A stretch of DNA of 64,000 bases from the NCBI GenBank assembly GCA_965222905.1, contig OZ244976.1:6310815-6374814 (forward strand), in the 5' to 3' direction. The notes beneath the pieces were generated by a model. The model was not told where the DNA came from. It did no database searches and was given only the letters and a program-made list of their open reading frames with translations. The stretch comes from Vicinamibacterales bacterium (GTDB lineage Bacteria > Acidobacteriota > Vicinamibacteria > Vicinamibacterales > UBA8438). Shown here one piece after another: positions 24,821 through 64,000 of the stretch (the stretch's first letter is position 1; each line of letters begins with the position of its first letter). Both the position numbers and the translations under genes were made by a program.

Positions 24821-24834
24821 GTCCCCGCCACGCG

Positions 24835-37987: not shown

Positions 37988-38194
37988 TCATGAGGCCGCA
38001 AGATTCCCACAGCTCATCATCATCTATGATCAGAAACGAGGCCCTCGAATGGTCCAAACGACCGGGACCACCTCAGACCTCGGCCGCCTTTGTCGCGTGC
38101 TCGCGCACGACGACCGCACGATTGCGAGCCGGTCATTCCATATTGTCTAACCACGACCTACGACCGGACGCCGACCGGACAATCCGGAGACGCA

Positions 38195-41000: not shown

Positions 41001-41065
41001 CCAGCGCGGTGCTGGCGCGCGGCCTGGACAAGCGGCGGTTACGGGGGTTACGGGAGCGTTGAGCC

Positions 41066-42676: not shown

Positions 42677-42752
42677 CTCTTGCCATGCCGCTCGCAGCCC
42701 CTCCTGGACCCCTCTGGACCGCCGACGCAAAAGAGCCGCACCCAATTCAATT

Positions 42753-44075: not shown

Positions 44076-44525
44076 ATGAGAGGAACAGGATCCCGAATGG
44101 GCATCGCCGCCCTCGGCACAGCCATACCCGGAACCCTGCCCGTCGGGGCCGTCAGGGCGTTCGTCTTCGGCGCGAGCGTGCTCATCGCCTGCACCATGGC
44201 CTACTGGGCCCCGGCGGCGACCGTATCCATCCTCGAACGCTTGACTGCGATCGGCGCTACCGCACTCGTGACGGCGATCGTCAGCTACTTCATGGACCTG
44301 GCGGAGACCGCGCGCGCCGCATGGCGCTGGGCGCGCCGACGATTCATCGAGATCACGACCGGGCCAGTCACGGCCTACGACTGGCACATAGCCTACGGAC
44401 TGGCCGAGTGGCCCGAGCCGACATCGCACAGAACAGCCACGAGCGCCACTCTCTACGCGCCGCCGTACTCCGACCCCGATGAACTCCTGGAGTACATTCG
44501 GCTGCAGCTCGGGGCGCGGCCATGA
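44076..44525 (+). CDS. hypothetical membrane protein (upstream partner of the AbiU2-like gene)
   Basis: 149 aa with two or three hydrophobic helices (IAALGTAIPGTLPVGAVRAFVFGASVLIACTMAYW; LTAIGATALVTAIVSYFMDL). Stop overlaps the next start (ATGA). Confidence 0.55.
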   Translation: MRGTGSRMGIAALGTAIPGTLPVGAVRAFVFGASVLIACTMAYWAPAATVSILERLTAIGATALVTAIVSYFMDLAETARAAWRWARRRFIEITTGPVTAYDWHIAYGLAEWPEPTSHRTATSATLYAPPYSDPDELLEYIRLQLGARP

Positions 44526-45283
44526 ATGCCGCCGAGGAGGCCGAAGAGACCAGTAGGCTGCTCGACGCATTGGCGGGCGAGTGGGCCGCAGCATTCGACC
44601 AGCTCCGGGAGCTGGAGATCTTGTTCAGCGACCAGGAGCGCGTCGATCTCCTGAACCGCGTCGCCGGGCCGTTCTTCGCGCACATTCAGCAGGTCATGTT
44701 CGACGACCTGCTGTTACGCATTTCGCGACTGACGGATGATCCCGGGTCGGGCAGTAGGACCAATCTGACAATTCGCCGACTCCCTGCGCTCTTCAAGTCC
44801 AACGATGATCTGGCGAAGGAGGTCGAGGCGGCATTGCAGGCGCAGGAGTCCGCGCGCATTCACAGGAACCGGCGACTCAGCCACACGGACTTGAAGATGG
44901 CCTACGCGGTGGGTCAGGGCGCACTGCCGCGGGCGTCCCTCTCCGAGATAAGGCAGGTCCTGGACTCCACGTACGCCGCTCTGAAACTCGCGTACACGGC
45001 CGCCAATTCCTTATACCTCTCGAAGGATGTTGTCTCGTCTCCGCCGCGGGCCGCAGCATTCGCGTACCGCCTGGAACACCTTGCGGATGCGGTACTGCTC
45101 ATCGAGGAACTGCTCTGCGAACCGGAACGAGACCCCACCACCACCAAGCCACAGCCCTGGGACGAGGACTTCGCGGAGGACCGCATACGAAAGCTCGGCG
45201 CCTCACCCTCGCGTGCGAGGGTGAGGCGCCTCATCAACCTACACATGGCGGCGACTCGGCTCAAGAAGGCTGACAACGACTAG
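44522..45283 (+). CDS. HEPN-domain abortive-infection protein (AbiU2-like)
   Basis: 253 aa. VAGPFFAHIQQVMFDDLLLRISRLTDD...NLTIRRL...ARIHRNRRLSHTD: the R-x4-H (RNRRLSH) HEPN motif in the context I recall for AbiU2. Confidence 0.65.
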   Translation: MNAAEEAEETSRLLDALAGEWAAAFDQLRELEILFSDQERVDLLNRVAGPFFAHIQQVMFDDLLLRISRLTDDPGSGSRTNLTIRRLPALFKSNDDLAKEVEAALQAQESARIHRNRRLSHTDLKMAYAVGQGALPRASLSEIRQVLDSTYAALKLAYTAANSLYLSKDVVSSPPRAAAFAYRLEHLADAVLLIEELLCEPERDPTTTKPQPWDEDFAEDRIRKLGASPSRARVRRLINLHMAATRLKKADND

Positions 45284-48921: not shown

Positions 48922-49535
48922 CTAGAAAAGGCTCGACTGATTCAACGGGCGGCCCGTGTACGGATCGGTCAAGACAGGGAACCGCGGCAGCCGTTCGTCG
49001 AAGTACTCGGCAATCGACCACAGCTGAAGCCGATCGTAAGGCTGGCCGGCAACATGTACCCGCCCTTCACGCTTCACGTCCGCGCGATGTTTCGCAGGGG
49101 GCGGATCCAACGTGATGAAGCACCCCACAGCGGCCGCCTCCCGTTCGAGCACGTGCCGGAAGTCCCGCAGATACGACAGGCTGAACCGCCCGCCCTTGAC
49201 CTGGGCCAGCGCCAAGCGCGAGGTCGTGTCGTCGGGTGCGAGAGCCAACGTCGCACGGCCATCGATTCCCCCATCGCCACGCTGCTTCGTGTTGGGGGCG
49301 AATCCCGGCAGGCGGGTCACGGCCCAGGTCTCGAAGCTGAAAGCGTCGTCGCGCACGAGCTTGCGCGCGCTCTCGAGATCCGCCGGGATACCCAGGGTCG
49401 CAATCCGCGAGTCCTTGAGACGCTGGTTCCGGACCAGGTCGATCGCGAAGGCCGAAATGTCGACGCCGACCCAGCGGCGCTTCAGGCGGCTCGCCGCCTC
49501 GATCGTCGTTCCGCAGCTCGAACGCCAACGACGCG
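48922..49535 (-). pseudogene. N4/N6 DNA methyltransferase C-terminus fused to Mrr-like restriction endonuclease domain (fragment)
   Basis: CGTTIEAASRLKRRWVGVDISAFAIDLV (MTase motif I region, preceded by a broken PFSG..), then FSFETWAVTRLPGFAPNTKQRGDGGIDGRA...AQVKGGRFS...AVGCFITL... (PD-(D/E)XK Mrr-like). The rest of the MTase is missing. Confidence 0.7.
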
Positions 49536-49559
49536 GCCGCTCCGCTGAACGGCCAGCCG

Positions 49560-50001
49560 CGAACCGAAGCAGCAGGCTACGAGAGCCGGACTACCCACCC
49601 GGTTCACATCCGGTCGGTCGCCCCGAACTACCCGCCCGAGTCTCATACCGTCGGTCGCCTGTGCTCCGATCGCGACACCGATGGACAGCCGACGCCCCGA
49701 ACACGGAGCCGACGCGAACCCCCGACCTCGAGCCGCGGTGTAGAAGCACAGGAACGGGACCGCGACCAGACGCATGCCGAACGGCGTACTCGGCGCGAAC
49801 TCAAGCCGGATGCGGCACGGACGCCCCGCTCCGGCGGGCCGAGAGCAGCCCGCAGAAGCCATACAACGCCGCCAAGGCAGAATCCCCCTGCGACAACCAG
49901 TCCAGGGCCGCAGGGCCGTCGACGGCGGCATGCACTCGCGCCGCACTCACGCCGCACTCACGCCGCGCGCATTGCGCATGCGCCGTGCGGGCCAGATCCT
50001 G
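49560..50001 (+). repeat. T-depleted GCATGC/CCGCAY-rich non-coding module A1 (left part, cut by IS21)
   Basis: Hand count of 49681-49740: 3 T versus 13 A per 60 nt. Shares blocks with 57799-57900 and 57108-57168. Ends with 11-bp tandem units at 49930-49973. Confidence 0.75.
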
Positions 50002-50055
50002 GTGTTCGGCGTCAACTACTTTTGCCGGTCGACGACAATTATTCTTGCCGGCGCG

Positions 50056-50346
50056 CTAGCCGTCACGCCCGAAGCCCCTGGGCAGCTCGACGGCCTCCAG
50101 TACCGACAGATCCAGATCGCAGACCTGCTCGAGCAACTCCGCGGTCGCGGACCCGTCAAGCGATTCCGGCAACGCGTCCTGCCACTGCCGGTACTGTTCC
50201 TGCAACTCCAGGAGCGTCTGCACCGCGTCGTTCCACTGCTGCGGCCGCGATCTCCGGTCCGCGGGCCGACGGTACCGGATCCGGGATTCGCCGGCCTTGC
50301 TCCGCTCCCGGTACCGTGCCTGCCGCTCCGCGTTCGTCAGCGCCAC
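50056..50346 (-). CDS. small conserved hypothetical protein (passenger inside the IS21 element)
   Basis: GTG 50346: VALTNAERQARYRERSKAG...RPQQWNDAVQTLLELQEQYRQWQDALPESLDGSATAELLEQVCDLDLSVLEAVELPRGFGRDG. Lies between istB and the left IR. Confidence 0.55.
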   Translation of the reverse strand: MALTNAERQARYRERSKAGESRIRYRRPADRRSRPQQWNDAVQTLLELQEQYRQWQDALPESLDGSATAELLEQVCDLDLSVLEAVELPRGFGRDG

Positions 50347-50717
50347 ACGACTATCCTGCACCGTTACGTAACGGACCGCGGAAGCGGTCGGCCGAGCGAT
50401 CGGGGCGCAAGCGTGGCGACAGACCCACCGCTCGGTTGCCGTCGGCATCGGTGTACACGTGCACGTTGGTCCGCGACAGCGGAGCGGCTCCCCGGCGCCG
50501 CACTTCCGGGCAGTCGAACGTGGGCCAGCCTTCCGGCTGGCCCGCAAGGGCTTCCCGCACGCTCGGCCACAGGCAGTCACCCGAAGGGCCGGAGCGTAGC
50601 GGAGGACCCGCGCAGCGGGTTGACGGCCTGTGGTTGAGTGTGCGCGAGGTAAACGTTCCGAGTGCAGCGAGGGCCTTCATAACCGCCAGCTCGCCGATGT
50701 CTCGGACTACACAGGTT

Positions 50718-51539
50718 TCAGGAAGCAGCGGGTCGACGGCGCCGCGGCAACAGCGGACCCGGCGGACGGCCACGACGTGCGGGCGGTGGTGATGGCGCCG
50801 GCGACGTCGGCCGCGACGGGTCAGTTCGATAGCTCGGCACGTCGAACTCGAGTACCACCGAGTGGTGTACCAGCCGGTCGATCGCCGCGGCAGTGGCCAT
50901 CTGGTCGCGGAAGATCCGGTCCCACTGGCTGAACACCAGGTTGCTGGTCACCATCACCGAGCGTCGCTCGTAGCGCTCGGCAAGCAGCGTGAACAGCACC
51001 TCGGCCTCGTCGGGACTCTGCTGCACGTAGCCCAGGTCGTCGGCCAGGATCACCTCAAAGAGGTCGAGCTTGCGCAGTGCCCGCGGCAGGTCGAGGTCGC
51101 GTTTGGCGCCGAGCAATTCCTGGACCAGGGCGTAGGCCGGCACGCACAACACGCTGTGGCCGGCTTCGACCAGCGCGTGCGCGACCGCGCACAACGCGTG
51201 GCTCTTGCCGACGCCCGGCAGACCGAACGCAAGCACATTGGTCGCCGTCTCGAGGAACGCTCCGGTCGCCAGCGTCTTCAACTGCTGTACGACCGGCCCC
51301 GGTAACCGGCCCGTGTCGAGCGTCTCGAACGTCTTGCCGGGCGGCAGACGCGATGCCCGTCGCAGCCGGGCAATCCGGCGCTGGCGGCGTGCTTCGGCTT
51401 CGGCCTCGAAGACTTCCAACAGCACCGGCAGCGCGTCGTGGTGACCGGCCTGCGTCAATCGCGGCACCAGCTCCTCGGACGCCGTCGTCAGGTTGAACTG
51501 CGTCAGCAGCGTCGTCACCTGCGTGCTCGGTGCCGTCAT
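50718..51539 (-). CDS. istB: IS21 helper ATPase IstB
   Basis: MTAPSTQVTTLL...NVLAFGLPGVGKSHALCAVAHAL (Walker A) ...FEVILADDLGY (Walker B) ...AIDRLVHHSVVLEF. ATGA overlap with istA. Confidence 0.88.
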   Translation of the reverse strand: MTAPSTQVTTLLTQFNLTTASEELVPRLTQAGHHDALPVLLEVFEAEAEARRQRRIARLRRASRLPPGKTFETLDTGRLPGPVVQQLKTLATGAFLETATNVLAFGLPGVGKSHALCAVAHALVEAGHSVLCVPAYALVQELLGAKRDLDLPRALRKLDLFEVILADDLGYVQQSPDEAEVLFTLLAERYERRSVMVTSNLVFSQWDRIFRDQMATAAAIDRLVHHSVVLEFDVPSYRTDPSRPTSPAPSPPPARRGRPPGPLLPRRRRPAAS

Positions 51540-53035
51540 CCTTGCAGGCCTCCGGTCAACAGCGCGTCGTACCGCGTCAGGTCCGGCCGAGGGATGTTCA
51601 CCACGGGAATGGTCGGGACCGGCGGACTCACCTCGGCCTGGACGCTGGCATAGTCGCACGCGACGCCGGCGTCGAGTCGGGCCCGAAGCGTCGCCTCGAC
51701 CTGTCCTTCACTGGTCGTGGCCGCCAAGTGCAGCAGCCGCACATACTCGACGTCGGCCCGCTCGCCGTGCGTCCGCCCGAGCGCGTCATACGCCGACCGG
51801 AAAGTCAGCGACGGAAACAGCTCTTCCCGGAAGCGATACCGGGCAAAGGCGCCCGGCTTGCGGACCAGACTCCCGATGATGTGGCGATACTCGATCCGGT
51901 GGTCCGCCGAGCCCCGCAGCCGTGGCATCGTGCACAGCACCCGGCCGCCGTAGAGGACCTCGACCGTCGACGGATGCTGGCGCGCTTCGACCGTGTGACC
52001 GATCAGGCGCGACGGCACCGAGTAGATCCGGCTGCCGATGCGAATCGTGCTCCACTTGCGCACCCGGCACTGGAACGTCGTGTACTCCGGGATCCGCGCC
52101 GCCGGCAACGGCCGCAGAGACAGACGCTCCTCGGCCAGCCGAGCCGCCGCCGGCCTGTTCCGCTCCTCGTCGACGACCGCACGCACGAAGCCCAGATACG
52201 CCGACTCGTCCGCGAAGTCTCTTTCGCCCCGCAACAGCAACGCCTGCTCGATGGCCGTCTTCGTGCGGAAGTGCGCCTGCTCGGCCACCCCGTTCTCGTG
52301 CGGTTTCCCCGGCTGGATCCGCGACGAGTCCAGCCCGTAGTGGTCCAGCACTTGCCGGAACCGCGCCGTCAACTGACGCCCACCGCTGCGTTTCAGCTCG
52401 TGCGTCGCCGCCGACAGGTTGTCGTGACGGAGCACTGCCGGCACCGCGCCCAGCATCCACAGCGCCCCCTGCAGGCCCGCCACCAGCGCCTCGAACGTCT
52501 CGCTCAGCGCCAGTCCCACATACGTCCACTTGCTGTAGCTCAGCACCCACTCGAACAGCAGGTGCGCGAACGGCACGCCCCGGATCGTCACCCGCAGGTC
52601 GCTCGCGTCGGTGAAGTCAAACGCCGCTTCCCGGCCCGGGACCGCCACCTGCTCGAAGTACACCTCGCGGTCCGCACCGTACTGCACCCGCCAGTCGCGG
52701 ACCCGCCGCTGCAGCGTCCGTAGCTGTCCCTCCTGAAAGCGACCCGGATGCCGCCGGCACAGCGCCTTGAACAGCGTCAGCACCTGCAGCCGGCCGTCGG
52801 TGTCGGCCGCCAGCTGCGGCACCACCTCCGACTCCCACACCTCGGCGAACGGGTCTTCCCGCGTCCGCCACGTCCGCGGCCCCTTCGCCGTCGACGGCAA
52901 CGCGCCGCTCTGCCACTGTCGCGCTGTCCGCTCGCTCATTCCCGCGGCCGCCGCGGCCGCCGCCAACGTCTTCCCCGACATCCGTTTCTCTCGCAATCGT
53001 CGAACCTGCGCATCCGTGACCAACCCGTCCTCCAC
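51536..53035 (-). CDS. istA: IS21 transposase IstA
   Basis: GTG 53035: VEDGLVTDAQVRRLREKRMSGKTLAAAAAAAGMSERTARQW (HTH) ...AFDFTDASDLRVTI...RHDNLSAATHE...PGKPHENGVAEQAHFRTK (DDE). Confidence 0.88.
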   Translation of the reverse strand: MEDGLVTDAQVRRLREKRMSGKTLAAAAAAAGMSERTARQWQSGALPSTAKGPRTWRTREDPFAEVWESEVVPQLAADTDGRLQVLTLFKALCRRHPGRFQEGQLRTLQRRVRDWRVQYGADREVYFEQVAVPGREAAFDFTDASDLRVTIRGVPFAHLLFEWVLSYSKWTYVGLALSETFEALVAGLQGALWMLGAVPAVLRHDNLSAATHELKRSGGRQLTARFRQVLDHYGLDSSRIQPGKPHENGVAEQAHFRTKTAIEQALLLRGERDFADESAYLGFVRAVVDEERNRPAAARLAEERLSLRPLPAARIPEYTTFQCRVRKWSTIRIGSRIYSVPSRLIGHTVEARQHPSTVEVLYGGRVLCTMPRLRGSADHRIEYRHIIGSLVRKPGAFARYRFREELFPSLTFRSAYDALGRTHGERADVEYVRLLHLAATTSEGQVEATLRARLDAGVACDYASVQAEVSPPVPTIPVVNIPRPDLTRYDALLTGGLQG

Positions 53036-53127
53036 GAGGAAAACGGGCAGTCTCACACGACTCTGGGTGGGTCCACGAACCGGCGATCGCGTCCTCGGCA
53101 ACCGGCAGAAATAATTGTCGTTGATCA

Positions 53128-53440
53128 CCTGGCACGCCGCCGTCACAACGCATCCAGAATGACCGTGCGCCGATGGCAAACAGACGGCGGCGCAACGGCG
53201 GCGTACAGGCAGAGTCACGGCGGCGGGCCTGCAAAGCGACCCCGGCATGCACCCGCGGCGCATGCAGAAACACTCCGATCTGCAGGCATGCCGCACGCCA
53301 CGTGCGTGCCCGCCGCCGGCACGCCGCCGGCAAACCCGAGTTCACGACCGACGAGCGGAGCGACAAGACCCGCGCACTGGACAAAGCCGCAGAACAAGAG
53401 CAGAGTCAGCGGCGGACCGAACAGAGGAAGAGATCATCAT
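53128..53440 (+). repeat. T-depleted module A1 (right part)
   Basis: CACGCCGCCGTCACAACGCATCCAGA...GGCAAACCCGAGTTCACGACCGACGAGCGGAGCGA is a close direct repeat of 53955-54200. Confidence 0.75.
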
Positions 53441-53476
53441 GCCCCTACCACAGGAACAGCAGCGTTACTCATCGGC

Positions 53477-53749
53477 GTGATAGCCGCGACAGTCGCGTGC
53501 ATGGCGTGGCTGAAGCCGGCAACCGGGTCAAGGGCGGACAACATCGCCGGCGGCGTGATCGCGCTCGTCGGATTCCCGCTGGCCACCCTGCGCATCGTGC
53601 AAGCGGCCTGGGCCGAGATAGCGACGGTGACGATCATCATGTGGGTCCTGACAGTCGGGTTCACACGAGGCCGGGAGACCGTGATCTGGACGATCGCGGC
53701 GTGGTCCGGAACAGCCATCCTCGGATGGATGGCACAGATCGGCGTGTAA
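53477..53749 (+). CDS. small hypothetical membrane protein
   Basis: GTG-start 90-aa ORF with hydrophobic helices (GGVIALVGFPLATLRIV; IATVTIIMWVLTVGF; IWTIAAWSGTAILGWMAQIGV). A GAGGAAGAG RBS and an ATG lie 40 nt upstream in another frame, so the start or frame is uncertain. Confidence 0.4.
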   Translation: MIAATVACMAWLKPATGSRADNIAGGVIALVGFPLATLRIVQAAWAEIATVTIIMWVLTVGFTRGRETVIWTIAAWSGTAILGWMAQIGV

Positions 53750-54210
53750 ACGCCTCGAGCCGATAGCCAAGCCGGAACCGGACCGTGCAAGCCGGCGAAA
53801 CGCCGGCCGGCGAACACGACCCGAACCACATCCGACTCCCCCGCCTCCACGGCCGCGAACCCGAGGGGTTCAAGCAAACGACGGCGGCATGCACTCACGC
53901 CGCACTCGCGCCGCACTCGCGCCGCACTCATTTCGCATGCGCCGTGGATGCCACAGCCGGGCACGCCGCCGTCACAACGCATCCAGACCGACGGCGCGCC
54001 GACCGCAGAGAGATAGCGGCGCAACGGCGGCGTACACGCCAAGTCACGGCGGCATGCCGGCAAGGCGGCCCCGGCATGCACCCGCGCCGCATGCAGAATC
54101 ACTGCGATCTGCCGGCGCGCCGCACGCCACGTGCGTGCCCGCCGCCGGCACCCCGCCAGCAAACCCGAGTTCACGACCGACGAGCGGAGCGAGCAGCGGT
54201 TGCCTGTTCC
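53750..54210 (+). repeat. T-depleted module A2 (uninterrupted paralogue of A1)
   Basis: Contains 11-bp tandem units at 53889-53932 and the empty IS21 target site ...GATGCCACAGCCGG|GCACGCCGCCGTCACAACG. Confidence 0.75.
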
Positions 54211-54335
54211 AGCAACGGCGTGTGCTCCGTCAGCATCGGCCCGTCGGCATGTCGGCCACCCGGCCCGTCAGGCTTCCAGATGTGGAGGCCGTTGCCGAAA
54301 CGCTGCATGTGCAACCCGCACGCACATTCGATTGC

Positions 54336-56817
54336 CTAGCCCTACCCTGTACCCACATTATTCGTTCTGGACAACTCCAGCACGCTCCCGCCGTCCAATG
54401 CGGTAGCCGATGGTTGCGATGGACATTCGTTCGTAACCGCGCCACATGATCTGGTGTCCGGGGGGCGGGTCGTGCGTGCGGTTCTGGTAGCCGCCGAGGA
54501 TGGCGAGCAGGAGGACTGCGGCGGCGAGATGGTCAGGGGGCGACAGGCCGAGTTCTTCGGCATAGTCGGTCAGGAAACGCAACTCGATGTCGGTGAACAG
54601 CAACTGGGCGTCGCACCCCGGCAGGTCACGACCGAGCAGGGTCATCACCATCAGGCGCCAGGCGATCACGGTCTGGATGGTGACCGCGCGTTGGAGCCGG
54701 TCGGCGGTGTGGAACGCGAGATGTTCGACTCGGCATCCGGACTTGAGCACCCGGAACAGGTCTTCGATGCGCCAGCGCCGCAGGTAGTAGCCGATGACCG
54801 CGACCGCGGTTTCGGTGCTGTCGACGTCGAGGCTGGTGAGCAGGAACCACTCGACCGCCGGCTCACCGGGCGGCGGCGCGGTTTCGCGCACATGGACCGT
54901 TGACAGCGCCACCGGTTCGGCGCCGGCGAGGGTCGGCGGCGCCACCACCTGGCGATGGCGCACCTCGGCCCGCGCCACCCGCCCGGTGCGCGCCGGGCGG
55001 GCCTGCCTGCCGCTGGATTTGCGCCGCGCGCTCAGGCGGTCGACCTCGATCTCGACGTGCCCGTCGGCGGCGCCGGCGCGCATGGCGGCGAACAGCTTCG
55101 GGGCGCCCTTGGCGAGACAGCGGTCATGGTGGGCGCGCACCAGCACTTCCACCCGGTTCAGACGGCGCTGCTCATCGAACACCGCGAAGCAATCCGCCTC
55201 GCGGTCCATGACGCTGAGCACCCGCGTCTTGCGGCTCAACGCCGCCGCCGCCCGGTCGATGTCGCGCAGCCCGTCGACCCAGCGCCGCGTCTTGGGGGCC
55301 GTCTCCTGCGCCGCCTTGGGGGCTTCCTGCGCCGTCTTGGGGGCCGTCTCCTGCGCCGCCGCCGGCGGTGGCTCGTCCGCCGGGCGCGCCGCGCCGCCCG
55401 GCGGCGCCTCGAAACCGCAGCGCAGCACGCCCAGCGGCAGACCCGCGCCATCGACCGCCAGGGTCAGATGCAGATGCAGGCCGAGCGTCTTCGAGACCGT
55501 CTGGTTGCGCCCGATGATGCCCAGCCCCTCGCAGTTGGGGCGCGTCGCAAAGTTCAGATCCGTCCCGTCCTGGATGCACAGCACCGTGTCCTGGCCGCGC
55601 ATCCGCTGCAGCGTGCGCGCCCGGTGCGGCGCGAGAATGTTCCCGGGCGTGACCGCCGACGACACCGGCTGGTCGATGAGCCGGTAGTAGCCCTTGACCG
55701 CCGCGCGGTCGTGGGGACGCGTTGGCGGTGATCGCCTCGCCGGGCAACGACGCCAGCAGCCCCGCGCTCTTGACCAGACGCGCCGACAACCGCTGATCGC
55801 CCAACGGCGCCCCTCCAAACTCGTTCCCCGTCCAGGCACCGCTGTCGAGCCCGTCAGCCGGCGCCAGCGCCGGCGCCGCGTCGACCCGCGCCACCCCCAA
55901 CCGCCGCCGCCAGTGCGGCTCCAACTCGTACATATATACCGACTTGACCGGACGAGCCCGCGCGTGGTCGCGGTCCTGGCGCCCGCGACCGGCCGTCTGG
56001 CCGACCCACACGAAGTTGGCCGCCTTGAAGCTGGCCCCGTCATGCGCGGGGCCGACGAAGGTCTCCACCAGCCACGGACGATACTGGTAGCGGGCTTCGA
56101 AATCCTCCGCCACACGCGCCAGCACCTGGCCCAGCACCTGGCTGGCCAGGTTGCGGCATTGCACCCCGGGGCGGATCAGGAACCGGCTCAGGCACAGCAC
56201 CCGGTGCAGATGGGCTTGGCGTTGCTCAGCGCTCCATCCCATCCACGCCTCGCGCGCCCGCAATTGCAACGCCGCGGCCGAAAACCCGACCGCGCCCAGC
56301 ACCCCGTGCGCCGAGACCACCAGATAGCGAACCTGGCAGCCCGCAAAGGTCGTCGTCCCCTGCGGATGCTCGAAGTGCAGCAAGGTATTCCACACCCGGC
56401 GCTGCCCGCCTTGCTCTACCAGCTCCAGCGACAACCCCGCGACCGCCTCCACCGTACCCGGCACCGCCGTGGCCGCCGCCACCGGCGCGTCGAAACGCTG
56501 CGGCATCGGCGCGCCCCCGCCGCGCCGCGACGCCGGCAACGCAATCCGCCCCGCCTTGTGCAGCGTGTTGAGCGCCTTGAGACAACCCGCGAGTTGGGCC
56601 GACCCGCGCGCATCGACAAACCCGAACTCCGCGCACACCCGCCGCCCCACCGCCGCTCGGTTGTTCAGCGACTCCTGCGACACAATCCGCTCGAGGCGAG
56701 CTTGCGACTCCGGCGCACGAAGCGTCTGTAGTATCTGGTTCTGGTGCTCCATGCCGTGACGCTACACGGCGGAAGCTGATTTGTCCAGCCCTGAATGCGG
56801 GTACAAGGCAGGCCTAG
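54336..56817 (-). mobile_element. IS4/Tn5-like insertion sequence (2482 bp)
   Basis: Imperfect inverted repeats CTAGCCCTACCCTGTACCCACATT (54336-) and AATGCGGGTACAAGGCAGGCCTAG (-56817), about 20 of 24 matching. No clear target duplication. Confidence 0.7.
54358..56752 (-). pseudogene. DUF4338-like domain fused to Tn5-type DDE transposase, one frameshift
   Basis: N-part (frame of 55172..56752): WMGWSAEQRQAHLHRVLCLSRFLIRPGVQCRNLASQVL...PWLVETFV...FKAANFVWVGQTAGRGRQDR. Frame change near 55705-55715 (..ITANASP / HDRAAVKGYYRLIDQP). C-part: VLCIQDGTDLNF...VLSVMDREADCF...YYLRRWRIEDLFRVLKSGCRVE. Confidence 0.75.
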
Positions 56818-57049
56818 CCGTGTTCCAGAGGAGGATGCTCGGTTCCGCACCGAGGACATTACAGCCGCGTCTCGACCCACATCAGCGCCCCTGGCGCATG
56901 CAGCGATTCCGGATTTTCACACGTCGAGTGCATGTGGTACGGCAGGCTCTCGATCACCTGACTGCTCTTCCTGGTCGCTTCCATGGGCCTTGATTCTACT
57001 GCGCGCCGCTCTTGATCCGGCGACCGCAACCCGAACCACCGCCGAATCA

Positions 57050-59438
57050 CCGGCCGGCACGGCCCTGAACCCAGGAGCCTGAAACGAAGGCCCGGGAGAA
57101 GACGCAACCGCGTTGTAGAAGCGCAGGAACGACGCCGGGACCCGACGCATACAGAACGGCGTACCCACGTCGAGGCCAGGCAGCAGGCACGCCCCGCACA
57201 GGCGCGCCGAGAAGCGGCCCGCATGCAGAACGACGCCACGCCGCCGTCGGCAGGACCGCGGCAACAACGCCCAATGCACGCACGCCGACGGCGGCGCGCA
57301 TGCAGAACGACGCCACGCCGCCGTCGGCAAGACCGCGGCAACAACGCCCAATGCGGGCGGGGGCTGTACGGCGTGACCGCGATCTGAATGCGGCATGCAC
57401 TGACGGCGCGTCCACTTTGCGCGAAACCCTCCGGTCACGGTCCGCACGAGCTTCAGGCCGAACCAGCTGTCCGCGCCGTGACCACCCAACCCGCAACGAC
57501 GGGAACCAGGCACAACCGCGTCAGCCAGTCGAGGCCGCCGCGGCCGATCAGAAAGCCAGGAACAAGACACAACGAAGTCTTGCCGAACCGAATCCAGGCC
57601 AGCAACAACGGCGTCCGGCAGCCTCGGCTGGAGCACGCGGCGATGCGGCCGAAAACCGCCGGCACTCCCCCACCCCAAACCCCGAGCCAAGAGCTGCGAA
57701 CGAATACCGCGGCAACACCACAGCGCATACGGTTGCTCGAACGCCAAGGACGCAGCCGCGGCGCGGAACGGCGAGCCGCCAACGGCAGGAACAGGCCGGA
57801 GAGACCGGTACTACCCGCCCGGATCACATGCGGTCCGTCGCCCGAAACTGCCTGCCCGAAGCTCATGCCGTCTGTCGACTGCCCTCCGATCACGACACCA
57901 CGCATACGGTTACCGGAACGACACCGCACCGGCACGCCGAGAGCACCACGCGGGTACGCCGCACGCACGCCGATGGCAAAGGGCACGCAACAGGCATGCG
58001 GCGTACAGGCGGCGGCGGGGCACCCCGACCGCATAGTGCATGCGGCATGCAGTGGTGCCGCACGCATTATGCAGGCGGCGCGCAGTGGCGGGGACCGCAC
58101 ACGGATCCTGCCCCGACCGCATACGGACCAACCAAGCAGAGGTCGGAGCGGACGAACCATCGAGCAGCGGAACCGCCGAGCATTCCAAAGCCGGCCCGGG
58201 ACGACTTGCCCACTCGAGCCCGGAACCACTAGCGCTCGGCGGAGACCGCCGCGGCGACAACGCGCATGGAGCTATCAGAAGCACGCCAGAGCAGGGGAGA
58301 AACGACCCAGTCCACCGGGGCGGTAACGCATGAAGCGCGGCACGACGGCTCGGGGAAAAGGGCGTCGACACTGTCGCGTAGGCCGTTGACCAAGCGACGG
58401 CCCCCGACGAATGCCGATGGACCGACCAAACGCATGCGCCCCCTCGAAAGGGCGGCCGGCAGCCAAGGAGCGAAACCGATAGGGCCGCGAACCAGCAACG
58501 CGGACCGCCCCTGCCAGGTCGACTGGTGCGTCTCGCTCGTCCTGGACGAGTACTCCGCAGAGTGCGTCGTGCACCGGACGTATCCAGCGGAGAGCCGAAC
58601 GGATGGCCAGGTGGAACCCGACGGGAAATAGCCAGGTTTGGTGCTGGCCAAAAGGCATGCGCCCCGCGTACCGGCCGTACGCACGTTCACGGCAAAGGGC
58701 GATCAGATAGGGGTCACGTTGACACGGCGCCGCACCGGTGCCGCACGCATGCCGCACTCGGCATGCCCGATGTACCGGATCAGTTCGACGCGGAAATCAG
58801 TGCCCACTGCGTGCAGGAGGGGTGCACGCCGCATCCCCGCCGCATCCCCGCCGCGTACGGCGTGTACGCAAAGTGACGTCAGACTGCAGGTACCACACGA
58901 GGAGAGCCATGGGATCCTGAACCACCGAAGAGGCAAGCTGGGGCAAGGCCCACAACGCACCACCAGCCGCCGAGAGCATCCGGAGACCTCGCTGAATCCG
59001 CGAACGGATCAGAACCCCAGTAATCGAGGACCTGGCGTCAAGACCTCACGCGAGGCAACACCCACGAGAGGCATGCTGCACCAGGCGCAGGCTCAGAACG
59101 AAACAGCCCCACACGCCCGGCAGCCGCGCCGCACTCGGCACAACCGCATGCCGTACGCAAGTTGATCGCGGAATGCGTACAGCCCGCACGCATAGTGCAT
59201 GTACGCCGCACGCGGCACGACCGCACCCTGACCGCATCCGACCCGTCAACTGGACGGGCCGCATCACGCGGACGGGGCACGCAGCGGGCGTGCACGCCGC
59301 ACTCGGCATGCCCGCAAGCCGCACCCAATTTGCTACGGGTCTGCGTGCCAACTGCACGCACAATGCATGTACGCCGCCCGCGGCGCGACGGCATCCTGAC
59401 GTCACCGGACCCAACAACCGGGCGCAACGCATGCAGAG
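57050..59438 (+). repeat. T-depleted GCATGC/CCGCAY-rich non-coding module A3 (2.4 kb)
   Basis: Hand counts: 57301-57360 has 3 T versus 15 A; 57661-57720 has 3 T versus 18 A per 60 nt. All three plus-strand frames are open for hundreds of codons because stops are depleted. No RBS or start context and no recognisable protein. Confidence 0.75.
57221..57354 (+). repeat. 77-bp tandem duplication inside module A3
   Basis: GCATGCAGAACGACGCCACGCCGCCGTCGGCA(G/A)GACCGCGGCAACAACGCCCAATGC occurs at 57221-57277 and again at 57298-57354 (one mismatch). Confidence 0.85.
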
Positions 59439-59816
59439 CTAGCCGTCCTCCTCCGGCACGCGCCCGGCAACCGCAGAACTGCGCTGATCGACGCGAGCAC
59501 CGTCCTCGTCGTCCTCCTCGAACACGACAGGGACAAGGGTTCCCTGCCGCCGACCGTGGTAACGATCGTCGGCACGCCCGTGAGCACGCGCGCCACGGAC
59601 CGAAAGGCCCCGTACACGGGCGCTGACCAACTCATCGAAGACCTGGGGCAACCCCTTCGAGAACGCCACGCGCAACAACCAGCTGCGCGACACCCCGTGC
59701 TCGACACAGAGCTGATCGATGCGGTTGAGCTGCTCGGTGTTGAACCGCACCTTCACGACATGCCGGTACGCCTGCCAGCGAGGCGCGTCAACAGGGGAGT
59801 CGGCCATCCTTGCCAC
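59439..59816 (-). CDS. ribbon-helix-helix protein (MobC/CopG-like)
   Basis: VKVRFNTEQLNRIDQLCVEHGVSRSWLLRVAFSKG is an RHH beta-alpha-alpha unit; acidic tail. ATG at 59807 is an alternative start. Confidence 0.6.
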   Translation of the reverse strand: MARMADSPVDAPRWQAYRHVVKVRFNTEQLNRIDQLCVEHGVSRSWLLRVAFSKGLPQVFDELVSARVRGLSVRGARAHGRADDRYHGRRQGTLVPVVFEEDDEDGARVDQRSSAVAGRVPEEDG

Positions 59817-59819
59817 CTG

Positions 59820-60275
59820 CTAGGGGAGATCATCCGGCGGCTCCTGGCCTGGAACGGCAACCAGATTCCCGTCGTGAGAAGCATAAAGCGAATCAACCAG
59901 CGCTTCGAAGTCAATAGCGTCAGGCTGCACGCCAGGCAAGTACGTCGGAAGCTCCGCAATGAGAGCATCGCGGAGCGCATCCGGCTGCAACGCCGGATTC
60001 ACCCGCAGAAGCGTCTGCCCAAAAAGGATCACCTTGCGCTGTTGCGCCGTCGCCGGCGCGCGACGACGGCCAAAATAGACACCCTCTGGACGCGGGAAAA
60101 GGCGTGATCCCTGCCCCTGCCGCTTGGGCGTAAACTTCTTCGCGGCATCGTCGATCCCCGCAACAACGGCGGCCGACACGACCACCGACCGCGACACTGC
60201 AGAGCGCTCGGCAACACGGTCGACCTGGCTCAGCACACCCGGATCCATGTAGATCACAACTCTCGTCTTCGGCAT
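59820..60275 (-). CDS. ribbon-helix-helix protein (CopG/Arc-like)
   Basis: ATG 60275 behind a GGGAGG RBS: MPKTRVVIYMDPGVLSQVDRVAERSAVSRSVVVSAAVVAGI (RHH); ~110-aa C-terminal extension. Confidence 0.6.
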   Translation of the reverse strand: MPKTRVVIYMDPGVLSQVDRVAERSAVSRSVVVSAAVVAGIDDAAKKFTPKRQGQGSRLFPRPEGVYFGRRRAPATAQQRKVILFGQTLLRVNPALQPDALRDALIAELPTYLPGVQPDAIDFEALVDSLYASHDGNLVAVPGQEPPDDLP

Positions 60276-60555
60276 CCAGACCTCCCACGCCACCCACGAA
60301 CGTAGCCGCAGGCAGCGCCCGTTTCGGGTTCAAATGTACCACACAGGCTGTCGGCCCGTGCACGTACTCCCGCTGGCACAGGGGCTGTCAGCTAATGCCC
60401 GTTAAAAAACGTGCTGAGTTAGCGCGGTTTCTGTTAGCGCGGTGCCGTTCCCGCGCTGGCGCGGGCGCTGCCTGCATAGTCTAGTGCCTAGTGTTGTTCC
60501 AGGCGCTGTCAGCATTAGTACGTGCACCTGTACCGCATTATGTATTAGTGCCCAT

Positions 60556-61669
60556 TGGGGTATCCATTTAACCGGAGTCAGCGGTGTACCCTGGGGCGAT
60601 GGATCGCCCTCGCGCCGGTGCGCACTATCCGAGATCCGTGGGCGAGTTCCAGGCATGGTTCCAGAGCGACGAGGACTGCCTGGACTACCTGGAGTGGCTG
60701 CGGTGGCCGGCGGGCTTCGCATGCTTGGTCTGTGGCCACCAGGCAGCGTGGCGCCTCGGCGACGGCCGACTGATGTGCTCCGGGTGCGGGAACCGTTCCT
60801 CGGTGACCGCGGGCACGATCTTCGACCGTACGCGAACGCCGTTGACGGTTTGGTTCAACGCCTGCTGGCTGTTCGCCAGCGGCAAGGACGGGATTTCGGC
60901 ACTGAGTCTGAAACGGACGTTGGAAATTGGTTCCTATCAGACGGCGTGGACGATGCTGCATCGGCTTCGCGCGGTGCTGGTACGTCCAGGGCGGGAACGA
61001 TTGGCCGGGATGGTACAGGTGGATGAGACCTACATCGGTGGTGTGGAGCCGGACCTGCCCGGTGGCCGAGCTCAGGGCAAGAAGGTCCTGACCGGCGTAG
61101 CAGTCGAGGTCCGGGAGCCGAAAGGGATGGGCCGGTGCCGTATGGCGCCTCTCGCCGACGCCTCCGCGGCCTCGCTGCATCAGTTCGTGACCGATCACCT
61201 TGAACCGGGCGCGACGGTCGTGACCGACGGCTGGCAGGGGTACAGGGGACTCGACAGGCTCGGGTACTCCCACGTCAGGCACAGTCAGCGAGCCGCCCGA
61301 TTCCGTGGCGAGGATCCCGGCAAGCTACTTCCCGCCGTACATCAGGTCATCTCGCTGGCCAAGCGGTGGCTGCTCGGCACCCATCAGGGGGCCGCGGACG
61401 ACGCACATTTGGCCAGCTACCTCAACGAGTTCGTGTTCCGCTTCAATCGTCGGCGTTCTCGCAGCCGGGGGATGCTGTTCTTTCGGGTTCTCGAACTCGC
61501 CGTCGCCCACGATCCCGTGCGCTACCATGACCTCATCGCCAGCCGTCGGCCGCGGAAAGTCCCGCCAACACCGCCACTCGTGCGTGGCCGCCCGCCGAGC
61601 TTGGCGCGGCCACCGGCGAACCGCCCGTGGAGAATGGCGTCGGGATACTCCGGTTAAATGGATACCCCA
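60556..61669 (+). mobile_element. IS1595-family insertion sequence
   Basis: Perfect 23-bp inverted repeats TGGGGTATCCATTTAACCGGAGT (60556-60578) and ACTCCGGTTAAATGGATACCCCA (61647-61669). AGTGCCCAT flanks both sides (60547-60555 and 61672-61680, the latter offset by GC). Confidence 0.88.
60584..61657 (+). CDS. IS1595-family transposase
   Basis: EDCLDYLEWLRWPAGFACLVCGH...CSGCGNRSSVTAGTIF (Zn-ribbon) ...VQVDETYIGG...VVTDGWQGYRGL...YLNEFVFRFNRR. Confidence 0.9.
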   Translation: MYPGAMDRPRAGAHYPRSVGEFQAWFQSDEDCLDYLEWLRWPAGFACLVCGHQAAWRLGDGRLMCSGCGNRSSVTAGTIFDRTRTPLTVWFNACWLFASGKDGISALSLKRTLEIGSYQTAWTMLHRLRAVLVRPGRERLAGMVQVDETYIGGVEPDLPGGRAQGKKVLTGVAVEVREPKGMGRCRMAPLADASAASLHQFVTDHLEPGATVVTDGWQGYRGLDRLGYSHVRHSQRAARFRGEDPGKLLPAVHQVISLAKRWLLGTHQGAADDAHLASYLNEFVFRFNRRRSRSRGMLFFRVLELAVAHDPVRYHDLIASRRPRKVPPTPPLVRGRPPSLARPPANRPWRMASGYSG

Positions 61670-61865
61670 GCAGTGCCCATATGCCAGGAGGTGTGCCCTA
61701 AACACCCGGATCTCGGGGCCCTCTGGTGCGCACTGTTTCCGTAAATGTTGGCACGTGGCTAGGCACGTGCCCGTCGTTTTGGCCGTTTTCGCCTAAGCTT
61801 TTACTGCCGGGCCCGGGCACGTGCCCGCCCCACGTCAAGTCCCGTACGCCAGAACAGAAGGGGGT

Positions 61866-61895
61866 GAGCGACCCGGCAGTTCGGGTCGCTCTTTT
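61866..61895 (+). terminator. rho-independent terminator
   Basis: GAGCGACCCG-gcagtt-CGGGTCGCTC followed by TTTT(CCCATTTTT). No annotated plus-strand gene ends just upstream, so it may terminate a small RNA or IS read-out transcript. Confidence 0.55.
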
Positions 61896-62115
61896 CCCAT
61901 TTTTCCCTGCGGGAAGGCTTTTTGGTGCTCGACTCGCTTTGGGCACAGCACCTAGTGCCCTACGCAGCCAGAGAACGCTAGCACGAGGTGTCTTAGCATA
62001 GGCATACCGGCTGTGGCGCGTGCACTGCCTGCAAAGGCTAGTGCCTAGACTGGCAGCCGCAATCCGACAGGCGGTGCTGTGCGCGCCGACGCACGCCCTG
62101 TGTTACAGTGCGGCG

Positions 62116-62508
62116 ATGCGAAAGACATGCACGATCTCGATTCCGACCTGGTATCCGGACGACTACGCCGAGCAGCTCGGGGTGCTGGCCGAGCGCCTCG
62201 GCTTCGCCAGCCGGTCCGAGTTTCTGGTCGCTCTGGCCGACCGGGCGGTCCAGGCGACCGGACTGTACGCGCTCGGATTCTCGCGCGGCGTCGAGGCCGG
62301 AATGGAGCTGCGCGCCGCACGCGACGAGCGCCAAATGGAGTTGCACCGGCTCACCAACGAGTACGCCGAAGCCGGCGCCGACGTGCTGAGCGCGATGAAG
62401 CGCGCAGCGCAAGAGGAGACCGGCGCCAAGGGAATTGGCGTACAGCGCCGGATCCTGAGCGAGCAGTTCCGCACCGACGAAGACGTGCTCGCGGACGAGG
62501 ACTCATAG
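62116..62508 (+). CDS. ribbon-helix-helix protein
   Basis: MRKTCTISIPTWYPDDYAEQLGVLAERLGFASRSEFLVALADRAV (RHH) plus a coiled-coil-like tail. Divergent from the 59439-60275 RHH pair. Confidence 0.6.
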   Translation: MRKTCTISIPTWYPDDYAEQLGVLAERLGFASRSEFLVALADRAVQATGLYALGFSRGVEAGMELRAARDERQMELHRLTNEYAEAGADVLSAMKRAAQEETGAKGIGVQRRILSEQFRTDEDVLADEDS

Positions 62509-62509
62509 G

Positions 62510-63400
62510 CAGGTTCCGAACCCAAGCCATCACGGTCGACGAAACCTGATGGCCGAGACGACAAGACCGGCGCCCGGCGCCGCGGCCAGGAGCAGGCGGC
62601 CAAGACCGGCAGAGAGCGCCTGAACCCTCTGCAACTCGAAGGCGGCTTCGAGAAGCCGCGACGGATGACCTCAAGCACGGCAGCGAAGTGCAGACAGCCG
62701 CCCGGGCCGGCGGCCGAGCGGCCGGCCAACCCAAGGGCCGAGGCGGCAACCTGCCAACTGAATCGCCAGGAACAGAAAACGGCCTGAGACGCCGCAGAGA
62801 GCCCGCGAGCCGCCAACAAGCCCCGAAGACACCCGGAACGGGCACGACGGGCCACCAGCAGGCCCTGAACGCGTCAGAGCCAGATCCAGGACAGGTGGGG
62901 AAGACGAAGACGCACTCGGGACCCAATCGGCCGCTCCAAGCGCGGTCCGAGGCCCACCTCCGGCCAGGGGAAAGCCAGGTCGGAACGAACCACGGACTCA
63001 GCACGCGAGCGGCTCGGAAACGCGAGGCAGAAAGCGAGACGATCTGCCGAGTGCAGAAGACGTGCACAATGCCGGCAAGTTGCCAGCCAAGGGACCGCAC
63101 CGGGCGTGCGGCACGATCCCGGCATGCACGCACAACGCGTGCGGCAGGCTCGGACCACCAGTGCCCGCCGGGTGCGGGGGCCGGGCACGCCGAGTGCAAA
63201 GGGCGATCACGCCGAGTGCATCTTGCACCCAGGGCGACAGCAGTACCGGTGCGGCACGCATGGTGTTTGCGGGCGGCGCGCAGGCACGCCGCCCGCGGCA
63301 TGATGGCGAGTTGCATGTACGCCGTACACAAGTCGATCGCGGCGTGCACACACTCTGGAGCGGCGCGCACGGCAACGCACCTGGATCCGGATCGGGCGGG
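62510..63400 (+). repeat. T-depleted module A4
   Basis: 62701-62760 has 2 T versus 10 A per 60 nt. Its right end shares ordered blocks with the right end of A3: CAAAGGGCGATCA 63197 vs 58693; ACCGGTGCNGCACGCATG 63245 vs 58733; GCATGTACGCCG 63313 vs 59197/59365. Confidence 0.7.
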
Positions 63401-63609
63401 AACGGACCCAACAACTCGCACAGCTCGTTGCCGGCAGCGCGGAGCATGTCGTTTGCGCGGCGCCACTTGTCGTGCTGCGCCTTTGCGTCGCAGCGGTCGC
63501 GGTCGCGCGGCTCGTCCTCGGTCTCGCTGTCGTAGCGGAAGTCGAGGGTCCATTCCGACTCCTCGCGGCCTTCGGGCTTCGGCAGCCTGTTCTGTTGAAG
63601 CAGTTTCAC
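62998..63609 (-). CDS. hypothetical small protein; only the first ~70 codons look coding
   Basis: GTG 63609 behind GAAAGGAA: VKLLQQNRLPKPEGREESEWTLDFRYDSETEDEPRDRDRCDAKAQHDKWRRANDMLRAAGNELCELLGPF. The frame then runs on, Cys/Arg/Ala-rich, into T-depleted module A4 where stops are scarce, so the true end is unclear. Confidence 0.35.
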   Translation of the reverse strand: MKLLQQNRLPKPEGREESEWTLDFRYDSETEDEPRDRDRCDAKAQHDKWRRANDMLRAAGNELCELLGPFPPDPDPGALPCAPLQSVCTPRSTCVRRTCNSPSCRGRRACAPPANTMRAAPVLLSPWVQDALGVIALCTRRARPPHPAGTGGPSLPHALCVHAGIVPHARCGPLAGNLPALCTSSALGRSSRFLPRVSEPLAC

Positions 63610-63623: not shown

Positions 63624-64000
63624 TCAGTTGTCGTATCCGAGCACGGCTTGGCCCGTCTCCATGCGCTTGAGGCGCTCGGGCTGGTAGCGGGCCGCTTCCC
63701 ATTCGTCCCATGGCACCGAGCGGTCGTAGCCGCCGATGACCCAGCGCTGGAATCCGACCAGCTCGCGGGTGCGGCGGTAGGGCATGGGGTACGGTTTGGC
63801 TCCGAACCCGCGGATGGTTCGCAGCCGCTCCTGGCGGTCCTCCTGGCTTTCTCCGGGCCAGTACCCGACGAGCATGTAGACGAAAACGCGGTGCGGCGCC
63901 ACGCCGTTGTCCTTGAGCATCTGCAGGCCGCGCAGGAACCTGTCGCTGTCCTTCGGGTTGTCGAGGGCGGTGTACAGCCGCCTGATCTTCATCTGGTCAT
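63624..64000 (-). CDS. conserved hypothetical enzyme, C-terminal part (5' end beyond window); possibly radical-SAM-like
   Basis: ...RLYTALDNPKDSDRFLRGLQMLKDNGVAPHRVFVYMLVGYWPGESQEDRQERLRTIRGFGAKPYPMPY... Frame is open to the window edge. The family call is a weak recollection only. Confidence 0.5.
   Translation of the reverse strand, partial: DQMKIRRLYTALDNPKDSDRFLRGLQMLKDNGVAPHRVFVYMLVGYWPGESQEDRQERLRTIRGFGAKPYPMPYRRTRELVGFQRWVIGGYDRSVPWDEWEAARYQPERLKRMETGQAVLGYDN

Follow-up and report, generated by a model that had tools for sequence, protein, structure and literature searches.

We analyzed a window of 64,000 nucleotides (nt) from a Vicinamibacterales bacterium (Acidobacteriota; contig OZ244976.1, positions 6,310,815 to 6,374,814). 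Within this window, an original prediction made from the sequence alone had described T-depleted noncoding segments lying among genes for ribbon-helix-helix (RHH) proteins. The locus spans 49.5 to 63.4 kb of the window and is embedded in a 7.95-Mb contig of host DNA with approximately 67% GC. With its insertion sequences (IS) removed, it is a unit of approximately 6.3 kb, of which approximately 4.5 kb is T-depleted noncoding DNA. We compared the 64-kb window with related loci and contigs (L001 to L018). The main comparison locus, L009, was located by searching with a spurious open reading frame (ORF) called from the T-depleted DNA.

Small genes border the segments on both strands, as the original prediction of three RHH genes had stated. 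RHH122 (59439 to 59807, minus strand) encodes a ribbon-helix-helix protein (Pfam RHH_1, E = 3e-4, at threshold) and is under strong purifying selection, with 95% amino acid identity to its counterpart in L009. Upstream in the same operon is RHH151 (59820 to 60275, minus strand), a gene for a 151-amino-acid (aa) protein that is RHH-like by sequence pattern alone (MPKTRVVIYMD...) and had no match in Pfam and family searches. RHH130 (62116 to 62508, plus strand) diverges from the RHH151-RHH122 operon and gave a weak RHH match below threshold (E = 0.008). The original RHH assignment of the latter two was therefore overstated. The RHH151-RHH122 pair is kept in L009 through L018. The locus also contains a zinc-ribbon ORF (54174 to 57023, minus strand) that is split by an IS4-family element into two halves (54174 to 54341 and 56817 to 57023). 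The ORF is intact in L009 (7686 to 8072, 128 aa), tblastn recovers both window halves, and its substitutions fall 12/4/5 over the codon phases. A further ORF of 82 aa (53501 to 53749, plus strand) is a doubtful gene-caller prediction with no Pfam match; in L009, the corresponding sequence has lost 4 nt and is interrupted by an in-frame stop.

Three different IS elements had been noted in or beside the segments, and Pfam assigned them to the IS21, IS4, and IS1595 families. The IS21-family insertion (50003 to 53127, minus strand; istA at 51536 to 53100, istB at 50718 to 51659; Pfam IstB_IS21, E = 3e-47, and rve/Mu-transpos_C_2) lies inside a repeat module, module C. The IS4/Tn5-like insertion (54342 to 56811, minus strand; Pfam DDE_Tnp_1, Dimer_Tnp_Tn5, and DruA) has a transposase with a DruA-like N-terminal part, and junction sequences in the zinc-ribbon ORF indicate a target duplication of approximately CCTAGCC. 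The IS1595-family insertion (60306 to 61690, plus strand; Pfam DDE_Tnp_IS1595, E = 5e-28) is found between the divergent RHH genes. All three are genuine insertions, because they are missing from L009, where the flanking sequences are contiguous; L009 7314 to 7711, for example, shows that window positions 50002 and 53128 were originally adjacent. The IS4-family element is also absent from L017. Transposases of the IS4/Tn5 type with the DruA-like (Druantia) N-terminal domain were observed in several copies or variants (window 54358 to 56752, L001 1 to 1728, and L009 16509 to 18851).

The T-depleted DNA is made up of five segments, here described on the plus strand. S1a (49511 to 50002) contains modules A, B, and C1 and is cut at its right end by the IS21 element; repeat comparison located a 37-nt tandem of module A at 49586 to 49659 and the 11-nt tandem of module C1 (GCACTCACGCC) at 49932 to 49966. 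S1b (53128 to 53440) represents module C2, a 236-nt unit that is 89% identical to 53957 to 54192, and carries three copies of the palindrome GCATGC. S2 (53750 to 54200) joins a second C1 (11-nt tandem, 53891 to 53930) to C2 and has five such boxes. S3 (57000 to 59438), the main segment, consists of modules F, B, and A plus two tandems, with 15 boxes. Its internal parts are a 77-nt tandem (57199 to 57354), module A (57735 to 57899), and an approximately 168-nt tandem (59110 to 59432) that abuts the RHH122 stop codon. S4 (62509 to 63400) is unrepeated within the window, has a single GCATGC, and is 77 to 84% identical to L009 14615 to 15863.

The modules are direct repeats. BLAST aligned 49516 to 49679 with 57735 to 57899 (81%), 49733 to 49934 with 57108 to 57304 (72%), 49920 to 49987 with 53879 to 53946 (91%), and 53128 to 53363 with 53957 to 54192 (89%), every pair being in the same (+/+) orientation. 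Tandem units measure 11, 37, 77, and approximately 168 nt, dispersed units measure 236 to 320 nt, and the copy number of the 11-nt tandem varies from approximately 3 to 6 among module copies. These modules confirm that the segments form a repeat family. Two of the three repeat pairs originally proposed hold, but the third (58693 to 59376 with 63197 to 63342) gave no BLAST alignment and shares short motifs only, and the blocks described as collinear are in fact shuffled between copies. A CRISPR or other regular array was rejected: the short tandems have only 2 to 3.6 copies and are without spacers.

The depletion of T in this DNA is real, though it had been overstated in detail. On the plus strand, the five segments contain 7.7 to 9.5% T and 19.7 to 24.9% A, compared with window means of 15.8% and 16.6%, respectively. 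The AT skew ranges from +0.36 to +0.53 by segment, peaks at +0.69 in 300-nt windows, and has one absolute orientation in five of five segments, as had been claimed. For comparison, in the DNA upstream of position 49000 the 300-nt AT skew has a mean of -0.004, a standard deviation of 0.14, and a maximum of +0.34, and absolute values above 0.4 were seen only at a coding PhD/VapC toxin-antitoxin region. In most segments C exceeds G. The claim of 2 to 3 T per 60-nt line was too strong, since three or fewer T were found in 19 of 72 lines, with a median of 5 versus 9.8 in the background. Likewise, the few T's had been placed mostly inside CATG, where we found 36 of 403 (9%).

Stop codons are thinned by the T depletion in all six frames, from 15.1 to 10.9 per kb, which accounts for spurious gene calls in this DNA. 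Spurious ORFs of 186 to 400 aa occur at 62351 to 63553 (minus strand), 57300 to 58232 (plus strand), and 53889 to 54449 (plus strand). The source assembly annotates at least the latter two as genes, and they are now found in public protein collections (P0001 and P0012), together with a homologue, P0002, from L009. Such "proteins" are a practical matter for annotation.

Several lines of evidence bear out the view that the segments are noncoding. Period-3 power within them is at most 4.4, versus 59 to 118 for uvrA. Mismatches between the window and L009 are spread evenly over the codon phases (46/43/38, 37/32/29, and 27/26/21), in contrast to the RHH block in the same comparison (78/37/40), and segment indels are mostly not multiples of 3. 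A Pfam scan of the segments in the three plus-strand frames found no match, and tblastn with genes of the related loci left no trace inside them. The absence of period-3, of Pfam matches in plus-strand frames, and of tblastn traces led us to reject decayed copies of a protein-coding gene. A diversity-generating retroelement was rejected as well, as there was no reverse transcriptase domain among the scanned ORFs and the differences between copies involve all bases.

Homologous loci (L009 to L018) demonstrate that the locus is conserved elsewhere. Homologues of RHH122 fell into nine clusters, all in ENA metagenome assemblies, and the family was present in only a few soil-type metagenome contigs. 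In the recurring core, RHH130 lies beside an RHH15x-RHH12x pair that reads into skewed noncoding arrays, and a FitA-like RHH gene and a small ParA gene read into the arrays from the other side. The ParA partition ATPase and the FitA-like RHH gene occur together in L018, L010, and L012 to L014; the ParA of L018 (8282 to 8902) matches NF041546 over its full length (E = 3e-35). Accessory genes vary among the relatives and include Fic, nucleotidyltransferase, uracil-DNA glycosylase (UDG), integrase, SLT, and DUF3631 genes. We observed the UDG family genes within the skewed domain at L014 7403 to 8071 and L016 1097 to 1771. L016 also has, amid T-depleted noncoding DNA, three tandem copies of a relatively AT-rich unit of 61 to 62 nt (…AAAGTACTCAGAATCGGACTACCAGATTGTCTACAGGAGGCAATA…; 6020 to 6260, minus strand).

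Searches beyond these loci returned little. BLAST of the region against plasmids (PLSDB) and of 57050 to 59440 against GenBank phages revealed nothing related, and profile scans with RHH122 found no relatives in GTDB species genomes, JGI metagenomes, or IMG/VR. An invariant 22-mer of module C2 had no match in JGI metagenomes, and a literature search turned up nothing relevant to the locus. Exact-protein look-ups recovered L005 to L008, which are 100% identical to the window across their overlap. HMMER matches to the spurious ORF at 53889 to 54449 covered mostly its translated IS4 end and not the modules. The UvrA protein scored about equally against structures from Geobacillus, Mycobacterium, and Thermotoga and so gave no taxonomic placement.

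The homologues are mosaic. Flanks of the locus differ among the window, L009, and L017. The MmeI-type flank of L017 is 99.45% identical to that of the window, yet its allele of the locus is of the L009 type and is 75 to 91% identical to the window. L009 carries the L017-type allele in another genomic context, and the two are 93 to 99% identical block by block. Identity that changes from block to block in these alignments suggests that diverged alleles of a mobile module have recombined, rather than that hypermutation took place in situ. Divergence at 4-fold sites between the window and L009 was 12% for RHH122, 16% for RHH130, and 45% for RHH151, an outlier that suggests a mosaic history. The approximately four-fold difference in synonymous divergence between the neighbors RHH122 and RHH151 (window 59439 to 60275 versus L009 12677 to 13513) points to either a recombination breakpoint between the genes or extra constraint on the nucleotide sequence of RHH122.

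The compositional bias is regional and is tied to an absolute strand. Relative to the RHH151-RHH122 operon, T is always depleted on the antisense strand, the sense strand of RHH122 being the G+T-rich one. In the window, the ratio of A to T at third codon positions (A3:T3) is 2:24 for RHH122 and 8:41 for RHH151, both on the minus strand, and 14:5 for RHH130 on the plus strand. For ordinary plus-strand genes of the window, the third-position skew lies between -0.24 and +0.05. Seven minus-strand genes of L010 have third-position skews of -0.27 to -0.86, and the orientation-independent third-position bias also appears in L009, L014, L016, and the whole 9.7 kb of L018; in these other loci it covers 10 kb or more. 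Transcription-coupled bias was rejected, because oppositely oriented genes share the absolute skew; with third positions on both strands biased alike, the original argument against codon usage or local transcription as the source was sound. The IS elements show no strand skew, with plus-strand third-position values of -0.06 (IS21), +0.12 (IS4/Tn5-like), and -0.12 (IS1595). Furthermore, the segments diverge between the window and L009 by 15.4%, which is close to the 4-fold sites of RHH122 (12%) and RHH130 (16%). Because third positions are biased on both strands, the IS elements are unskewed, and the segments diverge at nearly synonymous rates, we infer that T depletion is mutational and regional, probably the state that neutral sites reach at equilibrium when mutation pressure across the whole element is strand biased. 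Noncoding DNA would be the most skewed because codon positions 1 and 2 pose no constraint there.

The differences between the window and L009 carry the same asymmetry. Over 3,895 aligned nt there were 204 A<>G, 188 C<>G, 77 C<>T, 61 A<>C, and 56 G<>T differences, and the disparity between A<>G and C<>T is strand asymmetric (P = 2e-14). If stationarity is assumed, plus-strand G>A is approximately 3 times as frequent as C>T, C>A is about equal to G>T (ratio, 0.94), and T>G and T>A are approximately 2.3 to 2.5 times as frequent as their complements. Among polarized changes, T sites were approximately 2.5 times more mutable than average (10/233 versus 43/2,557). The direction of the bias is as would be expected for cytosine deamination of an exposed G+T-rich strand. 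A strand-specific mutational signature, which the original prediction had tied to possible replication or transfer as single-stranded DNA (ssDNA), fits this composition, although as a property of the whole 10- to 16-kb domain and not of the repeats. The polarity of the AT skew reverses just to the right of S4, near 63400, and this flip could mark an origin-like switch, the boundary of the element, or an inverted second arm. Beyond it, a radical-SAM-like gene fragment (63624 to 63992, minus strand) has the opposite absolute bias (A3:T3 = 12:1).

Amid this neutral-looking DNA, alignments and motif counts single out GCATGC as the one clearly selected feature. There are 26 copies in approximately 4.6 kb of segments, where the remainder of the window would predict approximately 1, and all seven positions originally quoted were accurate to within 3 nt. 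Relative to an order-2 Markov model, GCATGC is enriched in the window (26 versus 9.4; z = 5.3), in L009 (36 versus 11.8), and in L010 (16 versus 5.1), where the array is not alignable with that of the window, and no palindromic hexamer ranks higher in any of these three. Of 29 boxes compared between the window and L009, 25 (86%) are kept, versus 40% of all hexamers, at approximately 15% divergence. Distances between boxes are phased at 10.5 to 11 nt (Rayleigh P = 2e-6 to 3e-5, n = 56). No 10- to 11-nt periodicity of single bases was present in the segments. In L012 to L014 and L018, the boxes cluster just beyond the 3' end of the RHH122 homologue, as well as upstream of parA, often with a TGC subsite 11 nt away. 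The modules gave weak, strand-ambiguous nhmmer matches to other GCATGC-rich DNA in the distant loci. L014 and L012 have GCATGC-rich regions without T depletion nearby, including one with nine boxes at L014 6880 to 7260. Taken together, the pattern of boxes suggests cooperative binding of protein to one face of double-stranded DNA.

We propose, tentatively and somewhat short of an even chance, that the segments are arrays of protein-binding boxes, probably for RHH proteins, within an integrated plasmid-like element. Of the possibilities raised at the outset, binding arrays of an integrated plasmid or integrative and conjugative element are the best supported, given the conserved, phased boxes and the ParA and RHH genes of the relatives. 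Under this proposal, the 49.5- to 63.4-kb region minus its IS elements would be an approximately 6.3-kb module of a plasmid-like mobile element, versions of which occur in a few uncultured soil-type bacteria. Its noncoding DNA would have been built by repeated duplication of modules of 11 to approximately 320 nt. RHH proteins would bind the GCATGC boxes cooperatively, with spacing in multiples of approximately 11 bp placing the boxes on the same helix face, and would form an operator or a centromere-like nucleoprotein array. In the relatives, a ParA gene and a second RHH gene converging on a similar array suggest a partition function like that of type Ib systems or a regulatory one. The skew may have arisen from prolonged single-strandedness of the G+T-rich strand, during rolling-circle or other unidirectional replication or during ssDNA transfer.

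Known systems offer partial parallels. Type Ib partition systems use RHH centromere-binding proteins, as in ParF-ParG-parH of TP228 and delta-omega of pSM19035. Like these, the relatives L018, L010, and L012 to L014 have a small (approximately 200-aa) ParA with an RHH protein, and short direct or palindromic boxes lie in noncoding DNA beside the genes, helix phased and with variable copy number of the short tandems. However, known centromeres measure less than approximately 300 bp and precede the operon, whereas the arrays here are 2 to 5 kb, approximately ten times longer, and lie mainly downstream of, and between, convergent operons; in addition, the window has no ParA, and characterized systems contain no detectable relatives of the GCATGC box or of the RHH proteins. 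RHH repressors such as MetJ on its metboxes, CopG on its operator in pMV158, and Arc and Mnt recognize tandem short subsites. Cooperative RHH dimers on subsites of 4 to 8 bp along one helix face would fit GCATGC and TGC spaced at 11, 22, and 44 bp. Yet those operators have 2 to 5 subsites at one promoter, in contrast to 26 to 37 boxes per locus over kilobases with no evident promoters. Strand asymmetry is known from ssDNA phages, rolling-circle plasmids, and the H and L strands of vertebrate mitochondria. Like these ssDNA-phase replicons, the locus pairs a G+T-rich strand with an A+C-rich complement, irrespective of the direction of genes and most markedly at neutral sites, with C>T in excess on one of the two strands; unlike them, it lies within a 7.95-Mb contig, no Rep or relaxase was found, and its AT skew far exceeds its GC skew.

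Other observations weigh against the proposal of RHH-bound arrays. RHH centromeres and operators extend over tens to a few hundred base pairs, not kilobases. By tblastn, the ParA genes of L018, L010, and L014 have no match in the window, and no Rep, relaxase, or other ssDNA-replication gene was present among the scanned ORFs of the window or the called genes of L009 to L018, which are fragmentary loci. AlphaFold gave no usable model of RHH122 (pLDDT 50). Tandem units with lengths divisible by 11 generate part of the phasing signal, and pairwise distances between boxes are nonindependent. S4 and the skewed DNA of L016 are T depleted without enrichment of GCATGC, and for this reason much of the noncoding DNA falls outside the box model. 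The rate asymmetries depend on stationarity, and the polarized recent changes number only 43. Finally, C<>G accounts for 188 of 600 differences (31%), as frequent per site as transitions. This excess in the window-L009 segments is not explained by compensatory flips of stems and may be partly an alignment artifact in GC-rich repeats.

An unlikely alternative is that the locus is functionless debris of a dying integrated element, such as aged intergenic DNA and duplicated fragments, drifting under a historic bias, with boxes that are relics of operators and DNA that persists only because it has not yet been deleted. Near-neutral divergence, the tolerance of three IS elements in 14 kb (one disrupting an ORF), the missing ParA cassette of the window, the broken 82-aa ORF in L009, and the mosaic, rearranged state of the locus among strains would all be accounted for. 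Simple decay, however, should not have kept 86% of boxes versus 40% of hexamers or enriched them independently in L010, L012, and L018, where the arrays do not align with that of the window. Nor does it fit multikilobase arrays beside an intact, strongly conserved RHH122 at every locus seen, or segments without traces of pseudogenes. We consider it improbable that the arrays are instead an origin of transfer (oriT), a single-strand-initiation site, or an iteron-type origin, with the RHH proteins serving as accessory factors of a relaxosome or of replication (like TraY, TrwA, MobC, or CopG) and the skew produced by repeated ssDNA exposure of one strand. RHH relaxosome accessory proteins such as TraY, TrwA, MobC, and NikA do act at oriT regions, where the transferred strand is exposed as ssDNA, in parallel to the strand bias seen here, and where RHH genes likewise adjoin noncoding DNA with direct and inverted repeats. 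The A+C versus G+T asymmetry runs in the direction of cytosine deamination on one exposed strand, UDG genes lie inside the skewed domain of L014 and L016, and L011 has SLT, integrase, and DUF3631 genes upstream of its RHH pair. But known oriT regions span only a few hundred base pairs, approximately one-tenth of the noncoding DNA here, no gene for a relaxase, Rep, coupling protein, or type IV secretion system was found in the window or the related loci, and plus-strand T>C, expected from adenine deamination of an exposed strand, does not exceed A>G.

Still less probable are explanations that place the cause in RNA or in the base T itself. Long, U-poor noncoding RNAs transcribed from the plus strand, either large structured molecules or sponges for protein that need A/C/G-rich sequence, had been suggested from the outset. 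The composition does recall stems of G-C pairs joined by A-rich loops, the sequence can form many local hairpins on paper, and scarcity of U eliminates start and stop codons along with intrinsic terminators. As with OLE, GOLLD, ROOL, and HEARO, the DNA is hundreds to thousands of nucleotides long, associated with mobile DNA, and free of coding signal. Unlike those RNAs, it diverges nearly neutrally and had no match to Rfam covariance models at the gathering threshold over the whole window or at E ≤ 0.1 over 49400 to 63500. Fold z-scores were alike on both strands (-1.8 and -1.9). Compensatory pair changes in the 3.9-kb window-L009 alignment of two sequences matched the permutation null on the plus strand (12 observed versus 11.7) and on the minus strand (8 versus 12.8), and an alifold covariation term of +0.94 over four copies of module C gave no support. 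Promoter-like and terminator-like sites were no more common than in shuffled sequence, and the skew at synonymous sites of genes on both strands is beyond the reach of RNA-level constraint on the segments. We regard as very unlikely a selection against T that would leave spacer DNA free of starts, stops, -10 elements, and terminators or yield C-rich, Rho-loading RNA. Plus-strand stop and start codons are removed, spurious ORFs of 300 to 400 aa arise, and C exceeds G in most segments, but stop density drops merely from 15.1 to 10.9 per kb, and neutral third positions of neighboring genes are equally or more skewed. The substitutions are also at odds with it, for C>A is about equal to G>T (0.94) and asymmetry is greatest between C>T and G>A and less marked for T>G and T>A. 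Local hypermutation in situ, by a deaminase with UDG or by a retroelement-type process, is hardly to be expected, though it could explain why the locus is skewed and also why it diverges so strongly between otherwise near-identical strains. The 99.45% identity of the window-L017 flank next to a locus at 75 to 91%, the abundant C<>G, the threefold excess of plus-strand G>A over C>T, the approximately 2.5-fold mutability of T sites in the polarized set, and UDG genes near the locus in two relatives are compatible with it. Against this, no reverse transcriptase or deaminase gene was found, and L009 has the L017-type allele in a different genomic context. The combination of 95% amino acid identity in RHH122, 12% versus 45% synonymous divergence, and block-wise identities of 93 to 99% is a pattern of allelic replacement or recombination. 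We give as little credence to a version in which strand-specific hypermutation is ongoing, through cytosine deamination on the G+T strand and uracil excision, and would set both the composition and the 10 to 25% divergence versus 99.4% in the flanks, with selection holding only the GCATGC boxes and RHH122.

What sets the locus apart from known RHH arrays and strand-asymmetric mobile DNA is its kilobase scale and the size of its skew, a combination that we find remarkable. If the proposal of RHH-bound arrays is correct, the kilobase-long RHH platforms would amount to a plasmid-type centromere or operator of exceptional size, from a lineage for which metagenomes are the only source. To our knowledge, a neutral-site AT skew of 0.5 to 0.85 is well above ordinary chromosomal replication skews. 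Present on both strands and absent from recent IS elements, a skew of this size would strongly mark foreign DNA whose history of replication or transfer is distinct, and the strand bias could help in tracing the limits of such elements where genomes are rich in GC.

The rest of the window has other variable DNA. A 5-kb stretch (9959 to 14946) is present with its integrase in L001 and L002 and absent from L003 and L004, where position 9959 is joined straight to 14946 next to the genes for a DNA-glycosylase and for UvrA; the stretch is an insertion that varies among strains. An MmeI-type restriction-modification gene lies in pieces (38030 to 39865, 41063 to 42676, and 42615 to 43976; span, 38030 to 43976) with an internal 77% repeat (40384 to 40773 and 41114 to 41497), and an MmeI_C fragment is found at 24086 to 24955. 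In L017, the MmeI-type gene region directly abuts the skewed locus. Defense and toxin-antitoxin genes of the island include an AbiU2 HEPN gene (44483 to 45283), a PhD/VapC-like pair (34378 to 35115, minus strand) with a strongly A-rich coding strand, and a gene for a GmrSD_C/Excalibur protein (20415 to 21485). The window also encodes a tRNA (18714 to 18786).

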